Assembly (NCBI GenBank): GCA_043787675.1
Contig: JAYVUT010000003.1
Span: 2,418-66,417 of the forward strand
Source: Candidatus Altimarinota bacterium
GTDB taxonomy: Bacteria; Patescibacteriota; Gracilibacteria; BD1-5; UBA2023
Reading direction: 5' to 3'
DNA: 64,000 nt
This document shows, piece after piece, positions 15,971-60,075 of the stretch. The stretch's first letter is position 1. Each line of letters starts with the position of its first letter. The position numbers were made by a program, and so were the translations under genes. The notes beneath the pieces were generated by a model. The model saw only the letters and a program-made list of their open reading frames with translations, did no database searches and was not told the origin of the DNA.

Positions 15971-18900
15971 TTATCTCGCTACTCGTAGTGTGATGATGGT
16001 ATCTTCATCGAGGGTTTCATTTTTCTCGATATCAGGTGTCTCTATATCTCAAAAAGTCGATAGAGTCTCAGAGGTGATCATATCACCAAATTGTGTTAGA
16101 ATCTCTTCACTTCCCTTTCCACTCATCGAGAGTGATATACGATCAGTGACACTATAGTCTGCTTCTTTTCGCATATCCTGGATGAGACGAATGATGTCAC
16201 GAGCATATCCCTCGAGCCGCAGTATATCAGTGATAGTAGTATCGAGTGCGACAACCATACCATATCCTCACACGACATCTCCTACTCACTCGAGTGGTAT
16301 ATACTCCATTGTGTACTCTCCAGGTTCCAGGATATATCCCCCGACATCTATGATACCATTCTCTTTTTCTACGAAGTTTCCATTTTTGGCTTCGGTGATG
16401 ACTTTTTGGACATCTTTTCCATACTTCGGACCGATCTTGCGGGCATCTGGCTTGCAGATTTTTTTGGCGAGGTTTTCTGGATTCTCATATCGGACTTCTT
16501 TGACATTGAGCTCGTCACGGATGATAGCTTGATAATACGCGGAGAGTTCGCGAGTGATCGTGACCGATGCGAGTGGTTGTCTCACACGGATATTTTTCTG
16601 TGAGCGGAGTGCGAGTCCGAGTGAGACGATCTGCTCACATATCTGCATATCACGATTGAGATCATTTGCAACAAGGTACTTATTAGGACGAGTGATATAC
16701 TCGAGATGGACAGATTCTCTTCCTGTGAGACCCTGGAAGATATTCTCAGAGAGAAATGGCATGAGCGGAGCCAGGAGCTTCGATACCTCTGTGAGAACCG
16801 TATAGAGTGTTTCGTAGGCTGATTTTTTGTCTGGAGTCATTCATGATTCCCAGAATCTGCGTCGTGAGAGACGAACATACCAATTGGTGAGCTCATCCAT
16901 ATACTCAGTGATGGCACGACATCCACGAGAGATATCGTATCATTCCATAGCATCATGAACCTGTCCGATGAGAACCTGTAGTTTCGAGAGGATCCAGCTA
17001 TCGAGAGGATTGACTATCTGAGTCGTCATGAGACGGAATGGATCAGCATTGAGAATACTCGTATTATAATATGCTTGTTCCATATCCATTCCCATGTATT
17101 TGTGGAGTATTGGACGAGGTGTACCAGCATGAGCCACGATCAATATTCGTTTTCCAGCATATTTCGTGAAGATTTCTTCGTATGTTTTGATGATTCTACT
17201 TTCGAATTGCTCGATATTTTCTACTGAGTTATTTTTGTAGAGTTTTCTGAGTTCTACATGTGAAGTATCCTTAGGCAGATTTCCCATCTCAGCAATCTCT
17301 GTGAGTGTTTTGTTTGCATATTCTCCTGCCGTCTGTTCTGCGAATCCATCCTCTATGATATACTCCCCAGAGAATCATATCTCTTCCCCTATGATACGAG
17401 CGGTATCATAGGTACGGATACGATCTGTATGGATAATTACGTCAAAATTCTTTCCCTGATCTCGGAGTGTTTTTCCTGCATTTTTTGCCTGTTCTCTTCC
17501 CTTCTCTGTGATATGTGGATTATCACTTCCATCACTCATCTTGGATTCTACATTCGATGTGCTCTCTGCATGACGAGAGAACCATACCTCGGTAGTATCT
17601 GATTCCCACTTATCGATATTCGCATACGTCGTGAAGAATGAATAGGTATTCCATATTGGGAGCATTACTCACTTGATCGTTTCCATAATTCCTTCTTCTT
17701 TGAAGTCCATATCTCCCCCAGAGAGGAGTGGCGAATTGAGCATATAAAAACGAATCGGATCAGCACCGTATTTCTCTATCGCCATACGAGGATCTGGATA
17801 GTTCCCGAATGATTTGCTCATCTTGCGTCCATCATTACCATTGACTACTCCAGTAGTTATCACATTCCTGAAGCTCGGAGTTGGTTTCTCTTGTCCAGTA
17901 GGATTGAGGAGTACTCCGAGAACATGCATCACATAGAACCAGGCACGGAGTTGCCCAACATATTCCGCGATGAAGTCTGCAGGAAAACTGGCTTGCATCG
18001 CTTCACGGTTCTCGAATGGATAGTGCATCTGAGCATATGGCATAGATCCTGAATCCATCCATACATCGAGAACCTCAGGTATACGGGTAAGGGTATTTCC
18101 AGTTGTTGGTGACTTGAGCTTGATAGCATCGATATACGGCTTGTGGAGATTGAATTCTGTGCCATCATATTCTCCTCATTTGAAGAAATATGTAGTCTTT
18201 CCATCTATTTCTCATTTTTCAAGCTGATCAAAAGACTGATTATACTGAAATATCTCATCCCGTGATGATACTACCAACTGTTCTTTGCTATCTTCTGATA
18301 TCCATACTGGCATCGGAGCTCCCCAATAGCGAGTTCGAGAGATACACCAGTCTGGAGCGGTTTCGATTCCTTTTTTGAATCTTCATTCTTTGAGGTATTC
18401 TGGGAACCAATTGATCTGTTCATTGGCTTCGACGAGTTTATCTTTTTGACTCTGGATATCGATGAACCATGAGTCCTGAGCCTTTTGCATGAGAGGAGTT
18501 CCAGATCTAGGACAAAATGGGACACGATGCGTTATTCCCTCCAGTTTGAAGAGTGTATTATTTGCCTTCATACGCTCGATATTGATCCGATTCACTCACT
18601 TCTCAGGATTCTCGAGATCGAGGTAGTGTACTCATTCCATATTAGAAATTTCAGCCGTATATCTTCCAGCCTCATCCATGGCCTCTGAGATGAATATTCC
18701 TTCTTTTTTCGCAAGTTGGAAATCCACTTCACCGAACTCTGGAGCCTCATGTCCGATACCCGTACCATCAGTATCCGTGATGAAGTCCGCATGGTAGATC
18801 TTATGATTTTTCTCGCCATTTTTCTGATAATAATACTCTGGAAATGGTGGAATATATCCGAGTCAGACGAGTTCAGATCCCTTGAACTCACGGATAACGG

Positions 18901-19822
18901 TGTATTCTCATTTTCCCTTGAATACCGTCTCTAGACGATTTTTTGCTACTATAAAATTAGAATTAATATAGGTTCTTTCTACATAAGTTCCGTCATCTTT
19001 TATACGAGGTGCAAATTCAGGATTGAGGGATATTTTTCAGTCATTTTGAGCTTCTAAATATGTTACCAATACATATTCGATATCATTCCTCACCGCGAGT
19101 GCCATATTCGCAGGAATAGTCCATGGAGTAGTTGTCCAGGCGAGGATTTCTGTTCATTCTGCAAATATAGAATTAGACTCTAATTTGAACTTCACTGTAA
19201 TAGCTGGATCATTGACCTCCTGATACGTATCATCCATAGCCACTTCAAAATTGGAAATCGGAGTACCCAGTTTCCAAGAGTAGAGTGATACACGTTTTCC
19301 CTTGTAGATGAGTCATTTTTTCCAGAGCTCAGAGAATACCCACATCACAGACTCCATATAGTCCTGATCCATGGTGCGATATGCATTGTCCATATCTACC
19401 CAACGACCGATCTTGTCAATATACCAATTCCACTCTGATGATACATCACGAGTATAGTTGTAGCATTCATCGATGAAGTTTTTTACTCCATTTTCTTCGA
19501 TTTCTTTGTTGGATTTGAGTCCGAGTTTTTTCTGAACCTTCTCTTCGATCGGGAGACCATGACAATCCCATCCCCACGTACGGTCAACACGACGTCCTTG
19601 CATCGTCCAATATCGCCCTACGACATCCTTCACAATAGATGAGAGGAGTGATCCGTAGTGAGGCATACCCGTGATGAATGGAGGTCCATCATAGAATCTA
19701 TATGGATTATCCTCTGGACGAGAATCTACAGATTTTTGGAAAGTATTATTTGCTTTCCAGTATGCGAGTACCTCTGATTCGAGAGCTGGAAATGATTGTT
19801 TTGGGGAGACTGATGGAAACAT
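15971..19822 (-). CDS. ileS: Isoleucyl-tRNA synthetase (type 2) carrying an inserted histidine-phosphatase-like domain
   Basis: ATG 19822 ([23 protein letters not shown]), [11 protein letters not shown] (HIGH region) and KMSKS. ORFs 19313-19975, 18383-18595, 17669-18058, 17375-17665, 16940-17287, 16286-16840 and 16049-16258 are all in one frame, joined by TGA. TAA stop at 15971-15973. The product is 1283 aa. Confidence 0.95.
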
Positions 19823-20015
19823 AGTAAAAAAAGCACACAAAATAAAATTGCGTGCTTTTGGCTCTCTTTCGAGAGAGGTACCACCGAAAGCGTATACTTG
19901 ATTATATATTTTTTGACGGAGCATTTCAGCTTCGGGTTGTTCTAATCGGTTTTTATACCTTTCTTCAGCCAGCATTGCGGATGATAGCCGCTCGATTGCT
20001 TTTGACTACTTTTTT
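19823..20015 (-). promoter_or_regulatory. T-box leader (Ile specifier) with competing antiterminator and terminator, upstream of ileS
   Basis: On the minus strand: hairpin GCGG-CUAUCAU-CCGC presents AUC (19983-19985), and the T-box core is GGUGGUACC (19877-19885). Helix GCUUU...AAAGC encloses the hairpin CUCUCU-CGAA-AGAGAG and would form the antiterminator. Its 3' strand overlaps the terminator AAAAGCACGCA-loop-UGUGUGCUUUUUUU (19826-19860). Confidence 0.7.
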
Positions 20016-20068: not shown

Positions 20069-20611
20069 TTATTTCTGATAAAATGTATTGAAAAAAGGAG
20101 CTATAGCACATTGTGTCGCCATGATAAATTGCTCCTTTCGCGAGAGCATACCATCAGTCCAGGCATGGTATGACCCCTGTTTGTCGCCGATATTTGCCTC
20201 TCCTCCGAGTGAGTGTACTACCTGTTCTAGGTCTCGCTGTTGTCCATCGAAGAGTCCATCTACAACTGCATCAGGAACCCTGAGGTGACAAGAGTATCCA
20301 TAGTATCACTGACCCTCCGAGTTCTCGATATACACGACTCCGATGAGCCAGTATTCTTCTCACCCAGAGTCCTGATATACTCCTCCCTCCATCCCGACAT
20401 AGTAGTCTGCATTTGACTCTTCTCGTCTTGTATATATTGCCCGATTTTTGGCTCCAGTTCGTAGCTCTTCGAGTGTTGTAGGCATATCTGGAACTCCAGA
20501 GGCTACCTTGTGATTCGAGAAGGTCGCTCCACTCGTATAGGGTGAAGTCGATAGGACATACTCTATGGCTGCAGATTTTGGTTGATTGGTGGTACCGATG
20601 GCGAAGTGCAT
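20069..20611 (-). CDS. Non-canonical purine NTP phosphatase (inosine/xanthosine triphosphatase, YjjX/NTPase_I-T family)
   Basis: ATG 20611. HKVASGVPDMPTTLEELRTGAKNRA matches the SGV..QP...E...GA.NRA core of the family. Reads through TGA to TAA 20069-20071. Confidence 0.75.
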
Positions 20612-29105: not shown

Positions 29106-32100
29106 TTATTCGCTAGATATATTATAGAGTTTATTTACTATTTCATCTCGCTCCCCCTCTAGTTTTTTCATCTCTGGATTGGATGATCTCACGAGCTTCA
29201 GTATCTCTTTCGGGAGTGGCATACCGATATCCATGACCGGACTGAGAACATGAGCGACATAGATATACTCACTCCGTATATCCCCTACTCTCTCATCGAG
29301 TCCATCGATCCTCGTCTCATAGAGATCACGATATGTCCTGATATTCTGGGTGGATTTCGCGAGGGCTATGATCTTCTCACTATTTTCGATAAGGGATTGT
29401 TTGAGAGATTCTTGAGTATGAGAGTTAATATCTGGTACAACGAGGAGTTGCAGATTCGTCATATTACATATTCATCAGAAATCATCTTGAAGTTGTCTAA
29501 AAATAGACTCAGAGTTGAGCAATCAAAATAAATAAAATAATTCTGGTAGATTCTCTTCGTTATCTATCCCAATAGAAGTGAATGCGTTCCAATTATGTAT
29601 GTGCTTATAATCAGTGAATGTGAATATATGTCTCTTTTGTCTCCCTGAAACACTACTCCAGGTAAGTCGATATTTTTTAGAAATTATATTCTTTGTTGTT
29701 GGATACTCTTCAATTGCACCCAGGCTATTATAATCATACCATCTTTCATTTTCATGTTGCAATGTAATATATGAATTTTGGAGGAAGATTGGCAGTCATA
29801 ATCAGACAGTATTTGATTGATCATTTTTTCATCAAATAGGTATTCGTGAATAAATTGAAAGGTGAAAGTCTCATTTAGACTCCAATATAGTAAGAATTTT
29901 TGCAAAAAGTAATCATGATTTTACTGTAAATAATTTATTATTCTCTATTTTTTCATCAATACAATTTTCAAGAAAATCTTTTAATACAATTTTTTGAGTA
30001 ACCCCAGTATATTTCTTAAGAATGACTGGATATTGCGGCTTTTTTCATTTTTCGATGATAATAATTGTTGAGTCAGTTGCTACTAATATATTTTGATCTA
30101 GCCCTCTTCAATAAAATAGACTTCATATTCAAAAGTCATATATTTTTTGAATTGAGCATTTATCTTTTAGGAAAGAACGAAGTTTATGAAAAGATGGTTG
30201 TTGTAGTATGCTTCGAGGAGTAATAAATGCTATTTTTGCATTATCATTCATCAAATAATATCAAAGATAATAAAAATATCCATAAATATTAAATTGAGAA
30301 TTTCATATACGAAGAAAATTTCAGTCACCTAAATCAATTTTAGAGTATTTTGGATCATTGATATTGATACCAAATAAATTCGCATTATCATATTTTGCAT
30401 CTCACTTTACATATGGAGGATTTCCTACTACAAAATCAAATTTTACCCGCTTGGTCTCATGTCGGAGGATGATCTCATCGATTTTTGTATCGAGACTCCT
30501 CAGATCATCTTTCTTCTTTTTTAGCTCTATAGGTATACTCTTGCGTATATACTCCTCTTCGGTTGTCTCACCTATACGCTCTATCGATGTTTTCTTCTCG
30601 AAGTCTTCTATACTCGTAGACTTATCATATACCTTGAGTATATCAGGAGAGTATTTCGACTCGATGAATTCTCGGATATATGCTTTCCTGATATTTATCC
30701 TGAGACTAGTAGGATCGATATCTCGTATATCGAGATAGATCTTGAGTATCTCTTCTTCATCACGCTTCGAGAGGAGAGTATTCGATAGAGTATCACCACG
30801 GAATGCTCTGATCGTAGTATCTATGATGGTCTCTCCACTATTCGCGAACTCAGCGATACTATCTGTAGTCGAGAATATACGGATCTGTCTATTGATCGGA
30901 TTGGTGATATTCCCCTCATTATCTATGTTGTGATAGAGGAGAGTCATGAGGATATTCATCTCTGCGAGATAGAGTGGGAAAGCCTCGATATCGAATCAGA
31001 CGATATTGTTGATGATGAGAGCCTCGGCAAGGAGTCACTTCTCGTGAGATGTGAGATCGAGTGTATTGATAGTATTGACTATGCGACTTGCTGCCTTATA
31101 GAGAAATGTTCCTGATCCACATGCAGGATCGATGATCGAGAGACCTGGGATATTGAAATATTGTTTCTCTATTTCCTCAGCTGTGAAGTTCGACTTTCCT
31201 ATAGGAGCAGACTGAGCAAAGGTGTTTTTTATATTTTGTATTCCGTAGGATTCTATAGTATTTTTGATATAGATCTCTGTATATCCGACCTCTTCGAGCA
31301 TATATTCGACGATATCTGGGGGTGTGAATACCTGTCACTTCTTAGTATCGTCTTCTTTGTAGCGTTCTTTGAGATAGTTTTCATAGACGGTACCGAATAT
31401 ATCTTGTTTCACACTCTTGAAATTGTATTTGATGATGAACACATAGAGATCCAGAAATGGTCGAAGAGCGACGAGTTCTCACTCATAGATACCCTCTTCG
31501 CTATATTTGGTTCGGATTTTCTCGAGTATTGTTTCTTGTTCATTTTTGTAGCTCGTGTAGAATCGTGCGAGAAACCCGAGTTTTTTGAATATATGTTGGG
31601 TGAGCTTGTTCCACTCTTCTCGCTCGAGGAGGTCGACCAGTTCAGATACTGAGAGGAGATCGATATTTTTTTTATCTTGTATGATCTTCAGGAGGATGAA
31701 TTGTATGATAAAACTATATACTCCCTTGATCTTCATACCATCATCATACTCAGATCCAAATGCTCCAGCAAGCTCGAAATCAGCAAGCACATCTTCGGCA
31801 AGTCTGATCAGATCGGCATGAAAATCTTCGATAATAAATTCACTCTGAGATACGAGCGTCGAAAGCGAGGTAAATGATGTGAGATAATAATCTTTCTTTT
31901 CAAATAGTTTATCTTTTTTGCGTTTTCAATCTTCTGTCGCGAGTTCTGGGAGTGTCAGAGTCGTATATCCACCATGGTATCCTCGAGTATAGAATCTCCA
32001 TGTCCACCCATCAGTGAGTATCCCATAGAGAGCATTTTTTCGCTTCATATATTTTTCTATCTGCCATTCTCATTTCTTCAGATTCTCATACATTTCTACT

Positions 32101-32345
32101 TCTACTGGTACTATGATACCATCGATGTTGAGTATGAAGTCATCACCCCTATCACCATCATCACCACGAGTTGCTTCATATCTATAGGTATGAGATATCT
32201 TGGCATTTCCAGGAGAGAGGGAGAATATATCACTCTCGAGGATATCTTTCGAGAATCACTGAGTGCCATCTCCGATTTCTTTTCCACGATAGAATTCTCT
32301 ATTTTTTTGATACTTTTCGATGAGTTTTTGGATCGATATAGGCAT
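29106..32345 (-). CDS. Single-polypeptide type IIG-like restriction-modification enzyme / gamma-class N6-adenine DNA methyltransferase (Eco57I-like) with an N-terminal HsdR_N/PD-(D/E)xK-like domain and a C-terminal specificity domain
   Basis: ATG 32345. One frame contains no TAA/TAG down to TAA 29106-29108, giving 1079 aa. It fuses ORFs 31479-31790, 31035-31301, 30402-30959, 29523-29762 and 29106-29462. Motif X VFTPPDIVEYM, motif I IIDPACGSGTFL and motif IV FDFVVGNPPYV are present. The N-terminal DDFILNIDGIIVPVEVEMY...YGILTDGWTWRFY resembles HsdR_N. Confidence 0.85.
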
Positions 32346-55104: not shown

Positions 55105-55347
55105 ATGCGACTCCTCACTGGGCTCATCCTCATTACTATCTGAGTAGCGATCATATACTATCGGTTTGCTATATATGAGTTCACTGGTGAGTGGGGTTGG
55201 GCCAATACCTACCTCGGTAATACTATGAATGCCATAGTCCTCATCGGTATGATTCTCATCGGTATGGGATCAGCATATCCGTTTGGTGCATTCGACGGGT
55301 TTGGTGGTACGAGCAATATCATAGAGTCCCCTAGTTCATCGAGATAA
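55105..55347 (+). CDS. Small two-TM membrane protein (80 aa)
   Basis: ATG 55105, one in-frame TGA, TAA stop at 55345-55347. Confidence 0.5.
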
Positions 55348-57586
55348 GTCGCATATCGATGAGCTCCTCGATATCGAAACGGAGTCTCGCCTCGAGACGA
55401 TCATAGATATAGTAGTCATCCTCGCTATACTCGAGTGTGAATGTGTCACGCACCTGTCATCCACCGATATCCTCGGTGCGTACAGAGTTGATACTGATAC
55501 CCATATGATAGAGGAGCGTCGTGAGCTCCATGAGGAGTCATCGCTTGTTCCTGAGAGTACATTCGATATCGAAAACGATACCAGAGTCCTCACTATCATT
55601 GCTCCACTTGGCGAGCATACGACGTTCGAGTTCTATTTTTGCTACATTCTCACAGTCGACTCGATGTATGGTGATGATTCCCTGCCCTATCGCTCAGACA
55701 ATACGCTTGTTCTCTGGTGTTGGCTCACAACACTTGGCAATTTTGTATGGGATATCGCGAGACTTGCCTATGATGACATAGATTCACTCTGGAGCTGAGG
55801 GGGATTTTTCATCCTGTGATTTTTTCTTGCTTGTTCCATTTTTGTCATCTATTTTGCGTCATCCGAGCTCTGTCTCTATGACTTCATCATGGATCACTCT
55901 GAGTATGCTCCCTGGTTTGCGAGAGAGATTGCCGAGTTGGACGAGTACATCTTCGCGTTCTTTCATATCGAGAGTATGTCCATCTATACTGCGTAGTATA
56001 GTGAGTTCTTTGTCGAGACCATGGGCATAGTTTTTGGTGAGATAGGAGTTCAGGATAGTTCGTCACTTCTCCACAAAAAATGTTCTCTCTTCACGATTGA
56101 TGAATTGTCTGATATATTCCTTTGCTTTGGCTGTCGCAACAAAAGAGAGCCAAATTGGTTTGGGTTTGCGATCGCGGTCTGTGATGATCTCGATACTCTC
56201 ACCATTGTGGAGTACATAATCAAGTGGTACAACTCGGCCATTGACCTTGGCTATGGTGACTGTATTGCCGAGGTTGGAGTGGATAGAATATGCGAAATCG
56301 ATCGGAGTCGATCATTTGGGCAGCGTCATGATATCTCCACGAGGTGTGAATACGAATATCTGATCCTCGAAGACATTCATCTTCATATCATTCATGAACT
56401 CACCTCCGCCTTGATCTATATCAACAATTCCCTTGATCGTCTGTACCCAATAGCTATCTTTGGATTTGTGACTGTGACCTGTTTCTGAGTATTCAAAATG
56501 AGCAGCCACTCCGACCTCTGCCTGGAGGTGCATCTCTCGTGTTCGTATCTGGATCTCTGTTGGTTGAGAGCGGAGATCAGGAAATAGTCATACCACTGTT
56601 GTATGGAGGGACTGATATCCGTTTTCTTTTGGGAGTGCTATATAGTCCTTGAACCGTTTTGGCATCGGGACGAATATATTATGGAGCACTCAGAGTATCT
56701 CATAGCAGTGTCTGATATCATCGGTGATGATGCGTATAGCAAAGAGGTCATAGAGATCACCCGTATGCGTGTATGAGTAGTCCTTGCGTGAGAGCTTGCG
56801 ATAGATAGAAAATGGAGCCTTGATACGATACGAAATATCGATAATGGGGACTTCATCTGAGATGACTCATCTGATGACTTCTTTGGCCTTATGGATAAAA
56901 AAATCTTGCTCCTCACGCAAACTCGCAAGCTCAGTGGTAATACGGATGAACTCAGATGGATGCAATATTCGAAAACACTCTGTTTCGAGAGCTTCTTTGA
57001 ACTCGAATATACCGAGACGATCGGCTATTGGGGCATATATATTGAGTGTCTCGAGTGCTATACGCTGACGTTTGGCTGGATCTGGATGATGATCGAGCGT
57101 CTGCATATTGTGGAGTCTATCTGCGAGCTTCACCATGATGACTCTCAGATCGCTCACCATAGCGAGGAGCATCTTGCGGAGAGACTCGATAGTCCGTTCC
57201 TCTCCTCTGTATCTGATAGTCGAGAGCTTGGATAGTCACTGACATATCTCAGCAACTTGCCGTCCAAATAGTCTCTCTATATCCGCCTCTGTCTGAGGTG
57301 TATCTTCGATCACATCATGGAGGATACATGATTGTACTGTTACTAGATCGGGACTCAGTTTCAGGAGCAACTTCGCAGCTTGGAGAGGATGCTCGATATA
57401 GGGTTCTCCACTCTTGCGGATCTGCGTAGCGTGAGCCTCACGAGCAAATACATAAGTATCCCATATCGTCTTTTGTACCCGTGATCTCGTATCTTCTCAG
57501 AAATATCCTACCATAGCATCTATGATCTCATTGGTGAGTTGATCTGATCTTGTATAGTCCAGAGATGTATGGGTAGTAGTATTCAA
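55331..57586 (-). CDS. Bifunctional (p)ppGpp synthetase/hydrolase (RelA/SpoT homologue)
   Basis: HD domain [12 protein letters not shown]...ILHDVIEDT, a synthetase domain, a TGS segment [15 protein letters not shown] and a C-terminal ACT-like end. Fragments 56867-57172 and 56312-56533 share a frame. TAG stop at 55331-55333. The start is either TTG 57586 or ATG 57514. Confidence 0.9.
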
Positions 57587-57606: not shown

Positions 57607-60075
57607 TTATGATCTGATTTCACATCCTACAGATTTCATTTTTTCTATGATATCGGTTTGTATCACGAGAGCCTCGTCATCAGAGATAGTGTGTTCATGA
57701 CTCGTGAGTGAGAATACAAAATTGACACTCTTGCGATCTTTCCCGAGGCGTGACTCATCTCTATATATAGATTCGACGGTGACTGTCGATATCCATGGAT
57801 GATATGACTCAATCAGGATAGATATAGGTCCAGTGTGGACTCTCTCATCCATCACGAAGCTGAGTTCTCGAGGTATCGACTGGAATCTAGAGATCGGAGC
57901 TATATGAGTTTCTTTGTCTGCAAAATGAGATAAGAGAAGTCAAATATCAGCTTCCCAATAGAGTGTCTCTGGTGATATATCAAATGCCTCAGCAGTGGCA
58001 GGATGTACTCGACCGAATCGTATGAATATATTCTCTCATGCCCGATATTCTCCAGATACCCCCGGATGGAGAAATGGGAGACTATTGGACTGATGAAGAG
58101 GTGGAACATATCAGAGTGTCTCTATGAGATATGACTCCAGTGATCTACGGAGTGACTCGATCGTATCAATAGTACTCACGCCTGCTATCATCGGGAGCTC
58201 TCCATATGGTTTGGTATCGATATCTGATAAGAGATCTATCACGACACTCGTATGGGTGAGATTTTTGCTATAGACTCGTCCGATCTCATAGAATCTGAGT
58301 GTATTTGATATGTTGCGATTTTTTGCAATATTATCAAATAATCGTACAGAGAGAGATCTTCGCATATGGGTATAGTCTATATTGAACGCATTCTGTATCG
58401 CAACAGAATCACTCATATCATCGTACCCGATAGCACTATCGAGGGATACATTGGTGAAGCTGTAATTATATACTTCGTTCCAGTTTTGTCCTTTCCAGTA
58501 GTTGAGTGAGATATCTCTGAGTTGCCTATTTATATTTCTTGTACTGATTCCTGAGTTGGACCCGAGAGGTGTAGGAACTATATTTTCATACCCGTATATT
58601 CGGATTACCTCTTCTGCTATATCTTCTTGTATTGATATATCTTTGGATGCTCGCCAAGATGGGACCGCTATAGTGAGATCACGAGTTGTTTGACTGATCA
58701 GATCGAATCCGAGACTTTTTAGTATTTTTATTACTTTTTCAGGAGATATTGAGGTACCTGCTTTCGTATTGATGAACTCATATGTTACATTGAGTATTAT
58801 ATGATTCACTTTTGACTCATTGAGATATGATCCAATTGCTGTTATATTGATATTTTTGTTCAGGAATGTGAGATACTCATATATACGAGGTACCGCAGCA
58901 GACGCAAGGAGTGGGTCGAGTGACTTCTCATACCGTGATGATGCGTCAGTACGCACTCCATGTCGCTGAGCTGAGAGTCGGACAGATACAGCATCGAAAG
59001 TCGCAGATTCCCAGATGACATTTCTCGTTGCGAGTGATACTGCCGAGTCCATACCACCGATGACTCCTGCGAGTGCTATTGGTCAGTTATCATCCGCTAT
59101 CACCATATCTTCAGTGGTGAGCTCATATTCGATTCCATTGAGGGCCAACATCTTCTCGCCAAATTTCGCAAGACGTACTGTGATGATTCCAGCTACTTTT
59201 TCCGCATCGAATACATGCATCGGCTGACCGAACTCGGTGAGTATCAGATTGGTGATATCTACGAGATCCATTTTTGGCGTCAGACCAGCCCGTTCCATCA
59301 TCAGTGATATACCAAAAGGAGATTGACTCACTGAAATATTCTCCATCTTTATTGTGTTGTAGGCGAGACAACGATCTGTTTCTATTTTGAGTTGGAGAGT
59401 TTTTGCTTCTATTTTTGTAGTAGTATCATACTGGGTGAATGGCAGATCAAATATAGCTCCCCACTCTCTCGCATTCCCATATACGCCGAATAAATCGGGA
59501 CGGTTGGTGATGAACTTGTTATCGATCTCGAATGTTGTATCTCGTAGAGTATAGTTATATATCTCTCCAGATATCCCTGGGAATGGCAATGTCAGGTCAA
59601 AAATGGACTTCCCAATCATTGATTCGAGGATACCCGCATCCCATATCTTCTCGAGTATCATGATCCCACCATCTGACTCCATAGCGAGTCCGATCTCATC
59701 AGCTCCACAGATCATCCCACGACTCATCATCCCTGCCATCTTGCGTTCTCCGATAACGAAGTCTCCTCCCAATACAGCACCGACCATCGCCACTGGTACA
59801 TAGGTAGCCTCGACTATATTCGCAGCTCCTGTGAGTATAGTCTCCTCCCCATACTCACCGAGATAGACTCGTACGATAGAGAGCTTGGTGCTATCAGGGT
59901 GTTTTGAGCATGATATGACTCGACCTACGACAACCTTGTCGAGAAAATGAGACTCGATACCATCGATCTCAGCGGTATGGATCGAGTACTTATGTGCGAG
60001 TTCGGTGGTATTATTTTTGCTTAGTAGCGATGCGAGTGGTGTATAGAGTGAGATCCAGTTGAGCGGGGTTTTCAT
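57607..60075 (-). CDS. pheT: Phenylalanyl-tRNA synthetase beta subunit
   Basis: ATG 60075. N-terminus MKTPLNWISLY with the tRNA-binding domain VVVGRVISCSKHPDSTKL. Fragments 59083-60075, 58111-59052 and 57607-57855 share a frame. TAA stop at 57607-57609. Confidence 0.95.

Follow-up and report, generated by a model that had tools for sequence, protein, structure and literature searches.

An isoleucyl-tRNA synthetase with an inserted histidine phosphatase domain in Gracilibacteria and related lineages

Background

Why would an isoleucyl-tRNA synthetase (IleRS) contain a phosphatase? The question is raised by the ileS gene found in a stretch of 64,000 nucleotides (hereafter the window) from contig JAYVUT010000003.1, positions 2,418 to 66,417 of the forward strand, of assembly GCA_043787675.1, Candidatus Altimarinota bacterium (Patescibacteriota, Gracilibacteria). 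An earlier note, made from the letters of this stretch, proposed that a domain of the histidine phosphatase superfamily is inserted in the product of this gene. Aminoacyl-tRNA synthetases with extra domains are well known. To our knowledge, the extra parts of bacterial synthetases almost always serve charging, editing or tRNA binding.

The insert and its host synthetase

The gene occupies positions 15971..19822 of the minus strand (coding part 19822..15974, TAA stop at 15971-15973) and encodes a type-2 IleRS of 1283 amino acids (aa) under genetic code 25. All features of the gene given below are on the same strand. The protein passes the cutoff of the ileS equivalog model TIGR00392 (820.9 bits, cutoff 621.4), and its best matches among solved structures are the IleRS2 structures 8c8v and 8c8u. 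The order of Pfam domains is tRNA-synt_1 (aa 18-701), His_Phos_1 (aa 746-918), Anticodon_1 (aa 941-1086) and DUF5915 (aa 1099-1264).

Comparison with close relatives that lack the insert places the histidine phosphatase domain at aa 747-935 (17018..17584), a net insertion of 188 aa. The alignment with structure 8c8v gives aa 745-938 (17009-17590), and the Pfam envelope of His_Phos_1 found by profile search covers 17069-17587. Residue 744 of the window protein corresponds to residue 666 of 8c8v, and residue 939 to residue 673. Thus about 194 residues stand in place of a 6-residue surface loop between helices 1 and 2 of the anticodon-binding domain. This bears out the insertion point proposed in the earlier note, which had observed that two IleRS motifs, at aa 721-737 and aa 938-948, are separated by about 190 residues. 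The range it gave, 17030-17611 (aa 738-931), is that of the same feature displaced by some 20 nt, and the minus strand was left unstated. The insert-less close relatives read TTYANIDGWEKSDTQVSIVNPLDRWILSKL across the junction, the loop of P0016 being NIDGWEKSDTQVSIVNPLD. The window protein has 16 host residues, then WFSRHAES … FRLMTTQ, then 13 host residues. The distance between the motifs FFxTYA and NWYxR is 67-75 aa in about 60 bacterial genomes outside the clade (82-85 aa in two of them), and 234-265 aa in insert-bearing genomes.

The structural evidence comes from models of two homologs, P0011 and P0003, whose phosphatase domains are 64-69% identical to that of the window. In the model of P0003, a homolog of 654 aa, a host helix (residues 294-322) is followed by a 7-residue linker and the first phosphatase strand (330-335). 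On the exit side the last phosphatase strand (515-517), again a 7-residue linker, and a helix (525-546) follow each other. The predicted local distance difference test score (pLDDT) is about 89-95 through the linkers and junctions. The entry helix, with pLDDT of about 91-94, corresponds to the helix that ends before the insert in the window protein (17 residues, aa 721-737, 17612..17662). Given these scores, the attachment of the phosphatase module, at the tip of the first helical hairpin in the anticodon-binding domain, is probably rigid.

Apart from the insert, the host protein has the sequence of a complete type-2 IleRS, and charging of tRNA(Ile) by it is assumed. The class I catalytic core with the CP1 editing domain (tRNA-synt_1) is encoded at 17720..19771. 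It contains PHYGS at the position of HIGH (aa 54-58, 19649-19663), WTTTPWT, and KMSKS (aa 667, 17810-17824). After the insert an 11-residue segment (aa 938-948, 16979-17011) and the helical anticodon-binding domain (Anticodon_1, 16565..17002) resume the host sequence. The C-terminal DUF5915 (16031..16528) is present in all related type-2 IleRS that were scanned. The host aligns over its full length, except for the insert, with type-2 (eukaryote-like) bacterial IleRS such as those of Priestia megaterium (8C8V) and Thermus thermophilus (1ILE), and shares with them the order of domains and the C-terminal DUF5915. It differs from 8C8V in the roughly 190 residues added at the 6-residue loop and in the HIGH motif, which reads HYGS.

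In this motif serine replaces the histidine of the fourth position. HYGS is also found in the relatives L001, L004, L088 and P0155, HYGN in L002, and HYGH in other insert-bearing relatives. A survey of IleRS (n=379) observed only HXGH or G/AXHH motifs, the latter being tied to mupirocin hyper-resistance; IleRS2 enzymes tolerate some changes of the HIGH motif (PMC10485003). The CP1 editing motif of the HYGS subclade is GTGIGHEAP (about aa 413-421), compared with the conserved GTG[IV]VH.AP. In addition, a CP1 segment of about 25 aa (aa 263-288, approximately 18959-19036), in which no domain was detected, is present in the window protein and missing from L001 and L088.

The insert is a short histidine phosphatase

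The assignment to His_Phos_1 (PF00300) made in the earlier note was confirmed by a Pfam scan of the table-25 translation. The domain is found with E = 6e-29 and 101.5 bits in the whole protein, and with 106.5 bits when the insert is scanned alone (cutoff 21.7). The four motifs of the superfamily that the note had listed are at the expected places and in the right order, and its reading of the catalytic residues as intact holds, since alignment identifies all six. The motif RHAESTSN (17552..17575) supplies R750, the nucleophile H751 (17570-17572) and N757. The second arginine of the phosphate pocket, R803, lies in IRTYDTA (17414..17416), the general acid/base E829 in FAEQ (17336..17338), and the second catalytic histidine H898 in VAHAG (17129..17131). 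Of the copies at the same site in related IleRS (site B below), 34 of 39 have an intact R-H-N-R-E-H hexad, as do 33 of 38 copies at another site (site A), and the hexad is preserved even in embedded copies that are only 26-30% identical to that of the window. R, H and N of the RHAESTSN motif are invariant across the embedded copies compared in the motif alignment.

The AlphaFold2 model of P0011, whose domain is 69% identical to that of the window, has pLDDT of 85-98 over the domain. A Foldseek search with this model returned many histidine phosphatase structures with probability 1.00, in agreement with the alpha/beta fold of the superfamily. The best superpositions, by root mean square deviation (rmsd), were with PspA (2.3-2.6 A), PhoE (2.6 A), HFP, a phosphatase of the riboflavin pathway (2.8 A), and CobC (3.1 A). 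Structures of cofactor-dependent phosphoglycerate mutase (dPGM) and of BPGM had comparable E-values and rmsd of 4-10 A. Full-length sequence matches among solved structures are limited to PhoE (1EBB/1H2E), PspA (4IJ5) and CobC (6NRU/6E4B). PhoE (YhfR of Geobacillus stearothermophilus), PspA and CobC share with the insert the compact branch-1 fold of about 200 aa and the R-H-N-R-E-H set. However, they are free-standing, whereas the window domain is embedded, only about 21-23% identical to them, and has RHA instead of RHG.

None of the named NCBIfam models is satisfied. The best match by score is the archaeal dPGM model NF038349 (75.8-80.8 bits, cutoff 225). It is followed by NF005567 (PRK07238, bifunctional RNase H/acid phosphatase; 68.7 bits, cutoff 326), which presumably corresponds to the Rv2228c type of M. 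tuberculosis. In that family a short histidine phosphatase is likewise fused to a nucleic-acid enzyme, but end-to-end, whereas here the partner is different and the insertion internal. The models of phosphoserine phosphatase 1 (NF009994, PRK13463; 58.5 against 277), CobC (TIGR03162; 56.5 against 162.9) and PspA (NF045917; 45 against 350), as well as the mutase models TIGR01258 (pgm_1; 30.4-36.7 against 81.7) and NF010713 (31.5-37.5 against 305), remain below their cutoffs. The insert is a branch-1 histidine phosphatase of the short-phosphatase type that lies outside every named NCBIfam model.

The earlier note had also allowed for a mutase-type activity, that is, the insert might be a dPGM performing the glycolytic step and fused to IleRS. 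Such a reading could appeal to the highest NCBIfam score, to the many dPGM and BPGM structures found by Foldseek (E about 1e-11), and to the automatic JGI name of one homolog, 'isoleucyl-tRNA synthetase/bisphosphoglycerate-dependent phosphoglycerate mutase'. The insert does share the superfamily and the catalytic core with dPGM/GpmA and BPGM, and its N-terminal region around RHG is clearly similar to theirs. However, dPGM chains align only to the first 50 or so residues of the domain (insert residues ~8-76), all dPGM cutoffs are missed by a wide margin, and the superpositions are poorer than those with the short phosphatases. A full-length dPGM match, a dPGM-specific segment and a C-terminal tail are all absent; the insert ends right after the last strand, 7 residues before the IleRS helix. 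dPGMs have HGNS after the second histidine, and the insert has HAGT (VAHAGTPRP) there. Moreover, most or all of glycolysis is reportedly missing in Gracilibacteria (PMC8406219). Taken together, the missed cutoffs, the partial match and the reported lack of glycolysis make a mutase role very improbable.

The insert belongs to the gene

When open reading frames (ORFs) are called with table 11, the ileS region is broken into short fragments. With TAA and TAG as the only stops it forms a single continuous minus-strand frame (15974..20005), in which ileS starts at Met62. This candidate start, at 19822, was selected by alignment to homologs and to the starts of solved IleRS structures. The frame is open for 61 further codons upstream of it (19823-20005), and these include other in-frame Met codons, such as the one at 19975. 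The gene contains 17 in-frame TGA codons. Five of them are in conserved alignable columns (aa 170, 305, 320, 397 and 480), and all five face glycine in 8c8v, which favours code 25 (TGA read as Gly) over code 4. No tRNA-Gly(UCA) was found in the 64-kb window by tRNA and Rfam scans, and thus the code assignment depends on the alignment of TGA with glycine. In the databases, the records of the nearest relatives carry the labels Candidatus Gracilibacteria or Patescibacteria group; here and below, lineage labels of relatives are those of the database records.

The reading of TGA as glycine in these genomes also explains the state of public annotation. The protein is mostly stored in fragments, and its halves are separately named 'class I tRNA ligase' and 'histidine phosphatase family protein, partial'. 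In public gene calls of the IleRS family (P0001-P0120), most sequences are cut at TGA or have Trp at TGA positions. For instance, P0001 has VWHAGS where its relatives have V[AG]HAGS.

The fragmented table-11 frame and the partial database entries might suggest an artefact, namely an assembly chimera, a separate gene, or an intein-like element removed after translation. Several observations speak against it. Under code 25 the 1283-aa ORF runs through the insert with no TAA or TAG, as the earlier note had maintained in arguing against a neighbouring gene. The same junctions are observed in dozens of proteins and contigs, 35-91% identical, from independent ENA, JGI, NCBI and Logan assemblies. The relatives L007, L008 and L040, which use the standard code, have the same architecture and no TGA at all. 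Within the insert, an in-frame TGA (Gly816, 17375..17377) occupies a position where most homologs have Gly. Codon usage of the insert agrees with that of the remainder of the gene (cosine 0.918, compared to 0.900 +/- 0.016 for control pieces), and the GC content is 0.402 in the insert and 0.429 in the remainder. As the insert codon usage is inside the control range, foreign origin by composition was rejected.

No intein/Hint splicing domain or homing endonuclease domain was found in the insert, where Pfam gives only His_Phos_1. At the boundaries only chance-level 10-nt matches were found. One of these near-repeats, TATCTGAGTC / TATCTGATTC (17015-17024 / 17596-17605), was considered as a recombination scar and rejected: the spacing of the two copies, 581 nt, is not divisible by three, and they lie in different frames, so that the match was ascribed to chance. 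The continuous frame, the recurrence, the native TGA and the codon usage effectively refute the chimera, the separate gene and the intein, and the probability of an artefact is negligible.

The identity of the insert to its counterparts follows that of the IleRS body and is somewhat lower, with insert and body values of 0.70 and 0.84 for L001, 0.38 and 0.52 for P0021, and 0.26 and 0.41 for P0060. This is consistent with vertical co-inheritance under slightly weaker constraint. Judging from these sequence comparisons, synthetase and phosphatase domain have been passed down together by vertical descent in Gracilibacteria, Peribacteria and Peregrinibacteria.

Distribution among related synthetases

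With P0011 as the query, 1.84 billion cluster representatives were searched, and the matches were examined by local profile searches and Pfam. Among them were many proteins of 1000-1470 aa that are type-2 IleRS with an embedded histidine phosphatase domain. Two sites are used. Site B is that of the window protein and is occupied, for example, in P0122, P0123 and P0149. Site A is situated about 40 residues past WxISR and upstream of KMSKS, in what we take to be the region where leucyl-tRNA synthetase (LeuRS) bears its leucine-specific domain; it is occupied in P0140, P0185, P0230 and many more. L011 is also listed among the IleRS with a domain at site A. Both sites are occupied in P0121, P0124, L002 and L005. 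Tandem copies at site A are seen in the Peregrinibacteria loci L015, L057 and L069 and in P0138, and P0148 has four copies of the domain.

The copies at site B are mutual nearest neighbours in 29 of 31 cases. The A and B copies of one protein are only 28-30% identical, and each is at least as distant from the other as from free-standing homologs, which indicates two old, separate domain lineages. All long proteins (at least 700 aa) that were checked by motifs or Pfam proved to be IleRS. On the other hand, three Gracilibacteria IleRS (L031, L032 and L053), one of them from a complete genome, have the ordinary length of 1056-1057 aa and no insert.

The earlier note knew of no synthetase with such an insertion and suggested a search of IleRS from the candidate phyla radiation (CPR). 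Dozens of insert-bearing IleRS are in fact present in the databases, from Gracilibacteria, Peribacteria and Peregrinibacteria. The novelty of the description itself stands: within an incomplete coverage of the literature, no publication was found that reports a domain of any of the three types (histidine phosphatase, NUDIX, serine hydrolase) inside IleRS. Synthetases with foreign enzymatic domains are a known kind, as there is a curated NCBIfam exception model, NF040702 (ileS_w_GNAT), for bacterial IleRS with an unrelated enzymatic domain, there GNAT. The window protein is not a member of this family (251.7 bits, cutoff 1999, no acetyltransferase match). The idiosyncratic modules of class Ia synthetases, such as the CP1 editing domain and the leucine-specific domain of LeuRS, are likewise inserted into loops of the class I core. 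However, these modules serve aminoacylation or editing, whereas the inserts considered here are autonomous hydrolase folds with free-standing homologs. The architecture with a histidine phosphatase in IleRS appears to be undescribed.

Gain and loss of hydrolase domains

A neighbour-joining tree, which carries no support values, was constructed from the flanks with the insert removed. Forms without the site-B insert are scattered in it among insert-bearing forms. The closest relative from a genome, L001 (JAVHOR010000065.1), is 82% identical to the window protein over 1252 aligned residues. It has the histidine phosphatase at site B and, in addition, a NUDIX insert of about 156 aa (IleRS aa 214-381) before WTTTPWT; the window protein has no NUDIX domain.

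The fragment P0019 was at first taken to lack the histidine phosphatase altogether. This was rejected, as it is a part of a 1569-aa IleRS encoded by one ORF under code 25 (L088:6938-11647, logan SRR33526132_996), which has such a domain at site A and thus has lost it at site B. Three inserts in L088 exceed the Pfam cutoffs, and nothing is inserted at site B. They are a NUDIX domain with a perfect Nudix box just before WTTTPWT (aa 241-342, 55 bits), a His_Phos domain at site A (aa 661-811, 125 bits), and a Ser_hydrolase domain (aa 922-1022, 34 bits) before the 11-residue segment that follows the insert of the window protein. The site-A domain belongs to the site-A lineage and is not a moved B copy. 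The synthetases of the window, L001 and L088 are 74-82% identical and differ by clean insertions and deletions of whole domains.

Among the 323 IleRS-like sequences compared, a Nudix box at the same position is present in eight, and a serine hydrolase insert in at least four. The Nudix box at the L001 position is also seen in L006, P0153, P0169, P0176, P0195 and P0240. The IleRS fragments P0052, P0129 and P0205 have a serine hydrolase (PF06821) just before the segment that follows the window's insert. As far as can be judged from these comparisons, the IleRS of this clade gains and loses several hydrolase modules: histidine phosphatase at two sites, NUDIX, and serine hydrolase.

Gene neighbourhood

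The neighbours of ileS in the window are a gene of the NTPase_I-T family (PF01931) and genes of membrane proteins. The PF01931 gene (117.9 bits) is directly upstream of ileS, at 20069-20611 on the minus strand, and this synteny is shared only with the closest relative, L001. Other genes on the minus strand of the window encode a 1079-aa restriction-modification methylase of the Eco57I/MmeI type (29106-32345), a long RelA/SpoT homolog with the domains HD_4, RelA_SpoT and TGS (55331-57514), and a canonical beta subunit of phenylalanyl-tRNA synthetase (57607-60075). PheT and DnaE encoded in the window are canonical and contain no inserted domains.

Possible function

We consider it likely that the protein is bifunctional, namely an IleRS with a grafted phosphatase, and not a mutase, that is accessory to charging. 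This estimate covers the identity of the domain, the phosphatase reading and the accessory role; the substrate is judged separately. Since relatives have lost the insert cleanly and several times, the domain would be accessory to tRNA charging and not needed for it. From the conserved residues we infer an active phosphomonoesterase that uses the standard mechanism of the superfamily. H751 would attack the phosphate to form a phospho-histidine, while R750, R803, N757 and H898 would hold the phosphate and E829 would protonate the leaving group.

As for the substrate, our tentative preference is for a phosphate ester connected with a ligand or product of IleRS, with the synthetase as a targeting scaffold. 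Candidates would be a 3'-phosphorylated end of tRNA(Ile), a nucleotide by-product, or a phosphorylated site on IleRS. Coupling to IleRS is favoured by the occurrence of two old lineages of the phosphatase, A and B, in one host protein, by L088 keeping A where the window protein keeps B, by the presence of up to four copies, and by the two more hydrolase types in the same host, whereas PheT and DnaE of the window are free of inserts.

Several points weigh against the assumption of a bifunctional enzyme coupled to charging. The closest non-embedded relatives of the domain are generic free-standing CPR phosphatases of about 190 aa. Three contexts of free-standing homologs were examined; they are varied, and none adjoins ileS or another synthetase gene. 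No neighbour gene is conserved across the insert-bearing ileS loci that were compared. With no shared neighbours and no adjacent synthetase, nothing beyond the fusion itself links the two activities. Two different loops and a variable copy number argue against a precise geometric role. The embedded domains are neutral to acidic (mean net charge of -3 at site B), and net charge gives no sign of an RNA-binding surface. The phosphatase itself has a single deviation from the core of the superfamily, Gly to Ala in RHG (A752), and in the HYGS subclade full synthetase activity is assumed. The survey was built on IleRS queries, and hence the specificity for IleRS may in part be a query bias. Finally, P0173 has several repeats of the phosphatase domain and no synthetase domain match, and may be a fragment.

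Many of the same facts would suit a passenger, that is, a broad-specificity phosphatase of small molecules lodged in tolerant loops of a large, constitutive and essential protein. It would act on free metabolites with no functional tie to charging of tRNA(Ile), IleRS being a mere carrier. The best non-embedded relatives form a large family of free-standing Patescibacteria proteins of 190-193 aa annotated only as PhoE-like, and one free-standing homolog has NUDIX, nucleoside deoxyribosyltransferase and HAD genes around it, a setting that points to nucleotide salvage. The domain lacks a basic character, its position and copy number vary, its losses are clean, there is no conserved neighbour gene, and the other inserts, NUDIX and serine hydrolases, are typical housecleaning enzymes as well. 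However, a passenger leaves unexplained why the phosphatase occurs at two sites, in lineages that resemble each other no more than they resemble free-standing forms, why two further hydrolase types are in IleRS, why PheT and DnaE of the window are canonical, and why every long match that was checked is IleRS. We regard the passenger as a serious possibility, if a doubtful one. Alternatively, the module might be catalytically silent and kept as a structural, regulatory or phosphate-binding element, for example for the tRNA backbone. The change of RHG to RHA in this subclade, the loss of a catalytic residue in a few embedded copies elsewhere (VHNREH, RHNWEH, RH-RSH) and the apparently rigid attachment would be compatible with that. 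But RHA also occurs in other embedded copies that keep all other catalytic residues, an acidic-to-neutral domain is ill suited to backbone binding, and at each of the two sites about 87% of the copies, distant ones included, retain the hexad, which is hard to explain without selection on catalysis; a silent module is thus quite improbable.

The unusual host motifs suggest yet another explanation, in which the HYGS protein is a diverged paralog serving as a scaffold for hydrolases and a different ileS does the charging. The serine at the fourth HIGH position (asparagine in L002), the altered CP1 motif GTGIGHEAP and the unusually fluid domain content could be read in this way. However, the IleRS body is strongly conserved between the window protein and L001, the ileS equivalog cutoff is passed, KMSKS and WTTTPWT are unaltered, the canonical HYGH is found in many relatives that bear the insert, and no second ileS is seen within the 64-kb window; the tolerance of IleRS2 to changes in the HIGH motif (PMC10485003) also speaks against a neofunctionalised paralog, which we consider improbable. 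Most of the weight is shared by coupling and the passenger, with coupling only slightly ahead. The rest falls to the silent module, the paralog, the mutase and the artefact, which partly overlap these two.

One free-standing homolog is located in a cluster of genes on the same strand (L081:1324-6576) together with two NUDIX genes, a nucleoside deoxyribosyltransferase-like gene and a small tRNA_bind gene. This cluster echoes the pairing of NUDIX and His_Phos domains within IleRS.

If the phosphatase is indeed coupled to IleRS, a more specific scheme can be imagined by analogy with toxin systems, although we think it unlikely in this form. NUDIX, histidine phosphatase and serine esterase domains would be interchangeable built-in guards that repair or detoxify damage to the translation step, the synthetase supplying substrate recognition. 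Known toxins do modify substrates that IleRS handles, which makes a repair or antidote role conceivable. A toxSAS-type toxin pyrophosphorylates the CCA end of tRNA (10.1101/2021.04.30.441581) and is tRNA-specific (PMC11559606), HipA and HipT phosphorylate synthetases (PMC6581861), and an ItaT-type toxin acetylates Ile-tRNA(Ile) (PMC6125619). NUDIX and phosphatase together could regenerate the 3'-OH of tRNA after pyrophosphorylation of the CCA end, the phosphatase could undo the phosphorylation by which a HipA-like kinase inhibits the synthetase, and the esterase could free N-acetyl-Ile from tRNA(Ile) acetylated by an ItaT-like toxin. The fast gain and loss of domains among close relatives would then reflect an arms race.

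Conclusions

An autonomous, apparently active (predicted) phosphatase is carried inside IleRS across a whole lineage of the candidate-phylum level. The finding also exposes an annotation problem, as genomes in which TGA codes for glycine leave this protein fragmented in public databases. If the hydrolases act on tRNA(Ile), on IleRS or on by-products of its reaction, they would amount to quality control or damage repair of a new type, built directly onto a synthetase. If they are not coupled to charging, this would be a striking case of a housekeeping enzyme that serves as a carrier of metabolic domains in reduced genomes.

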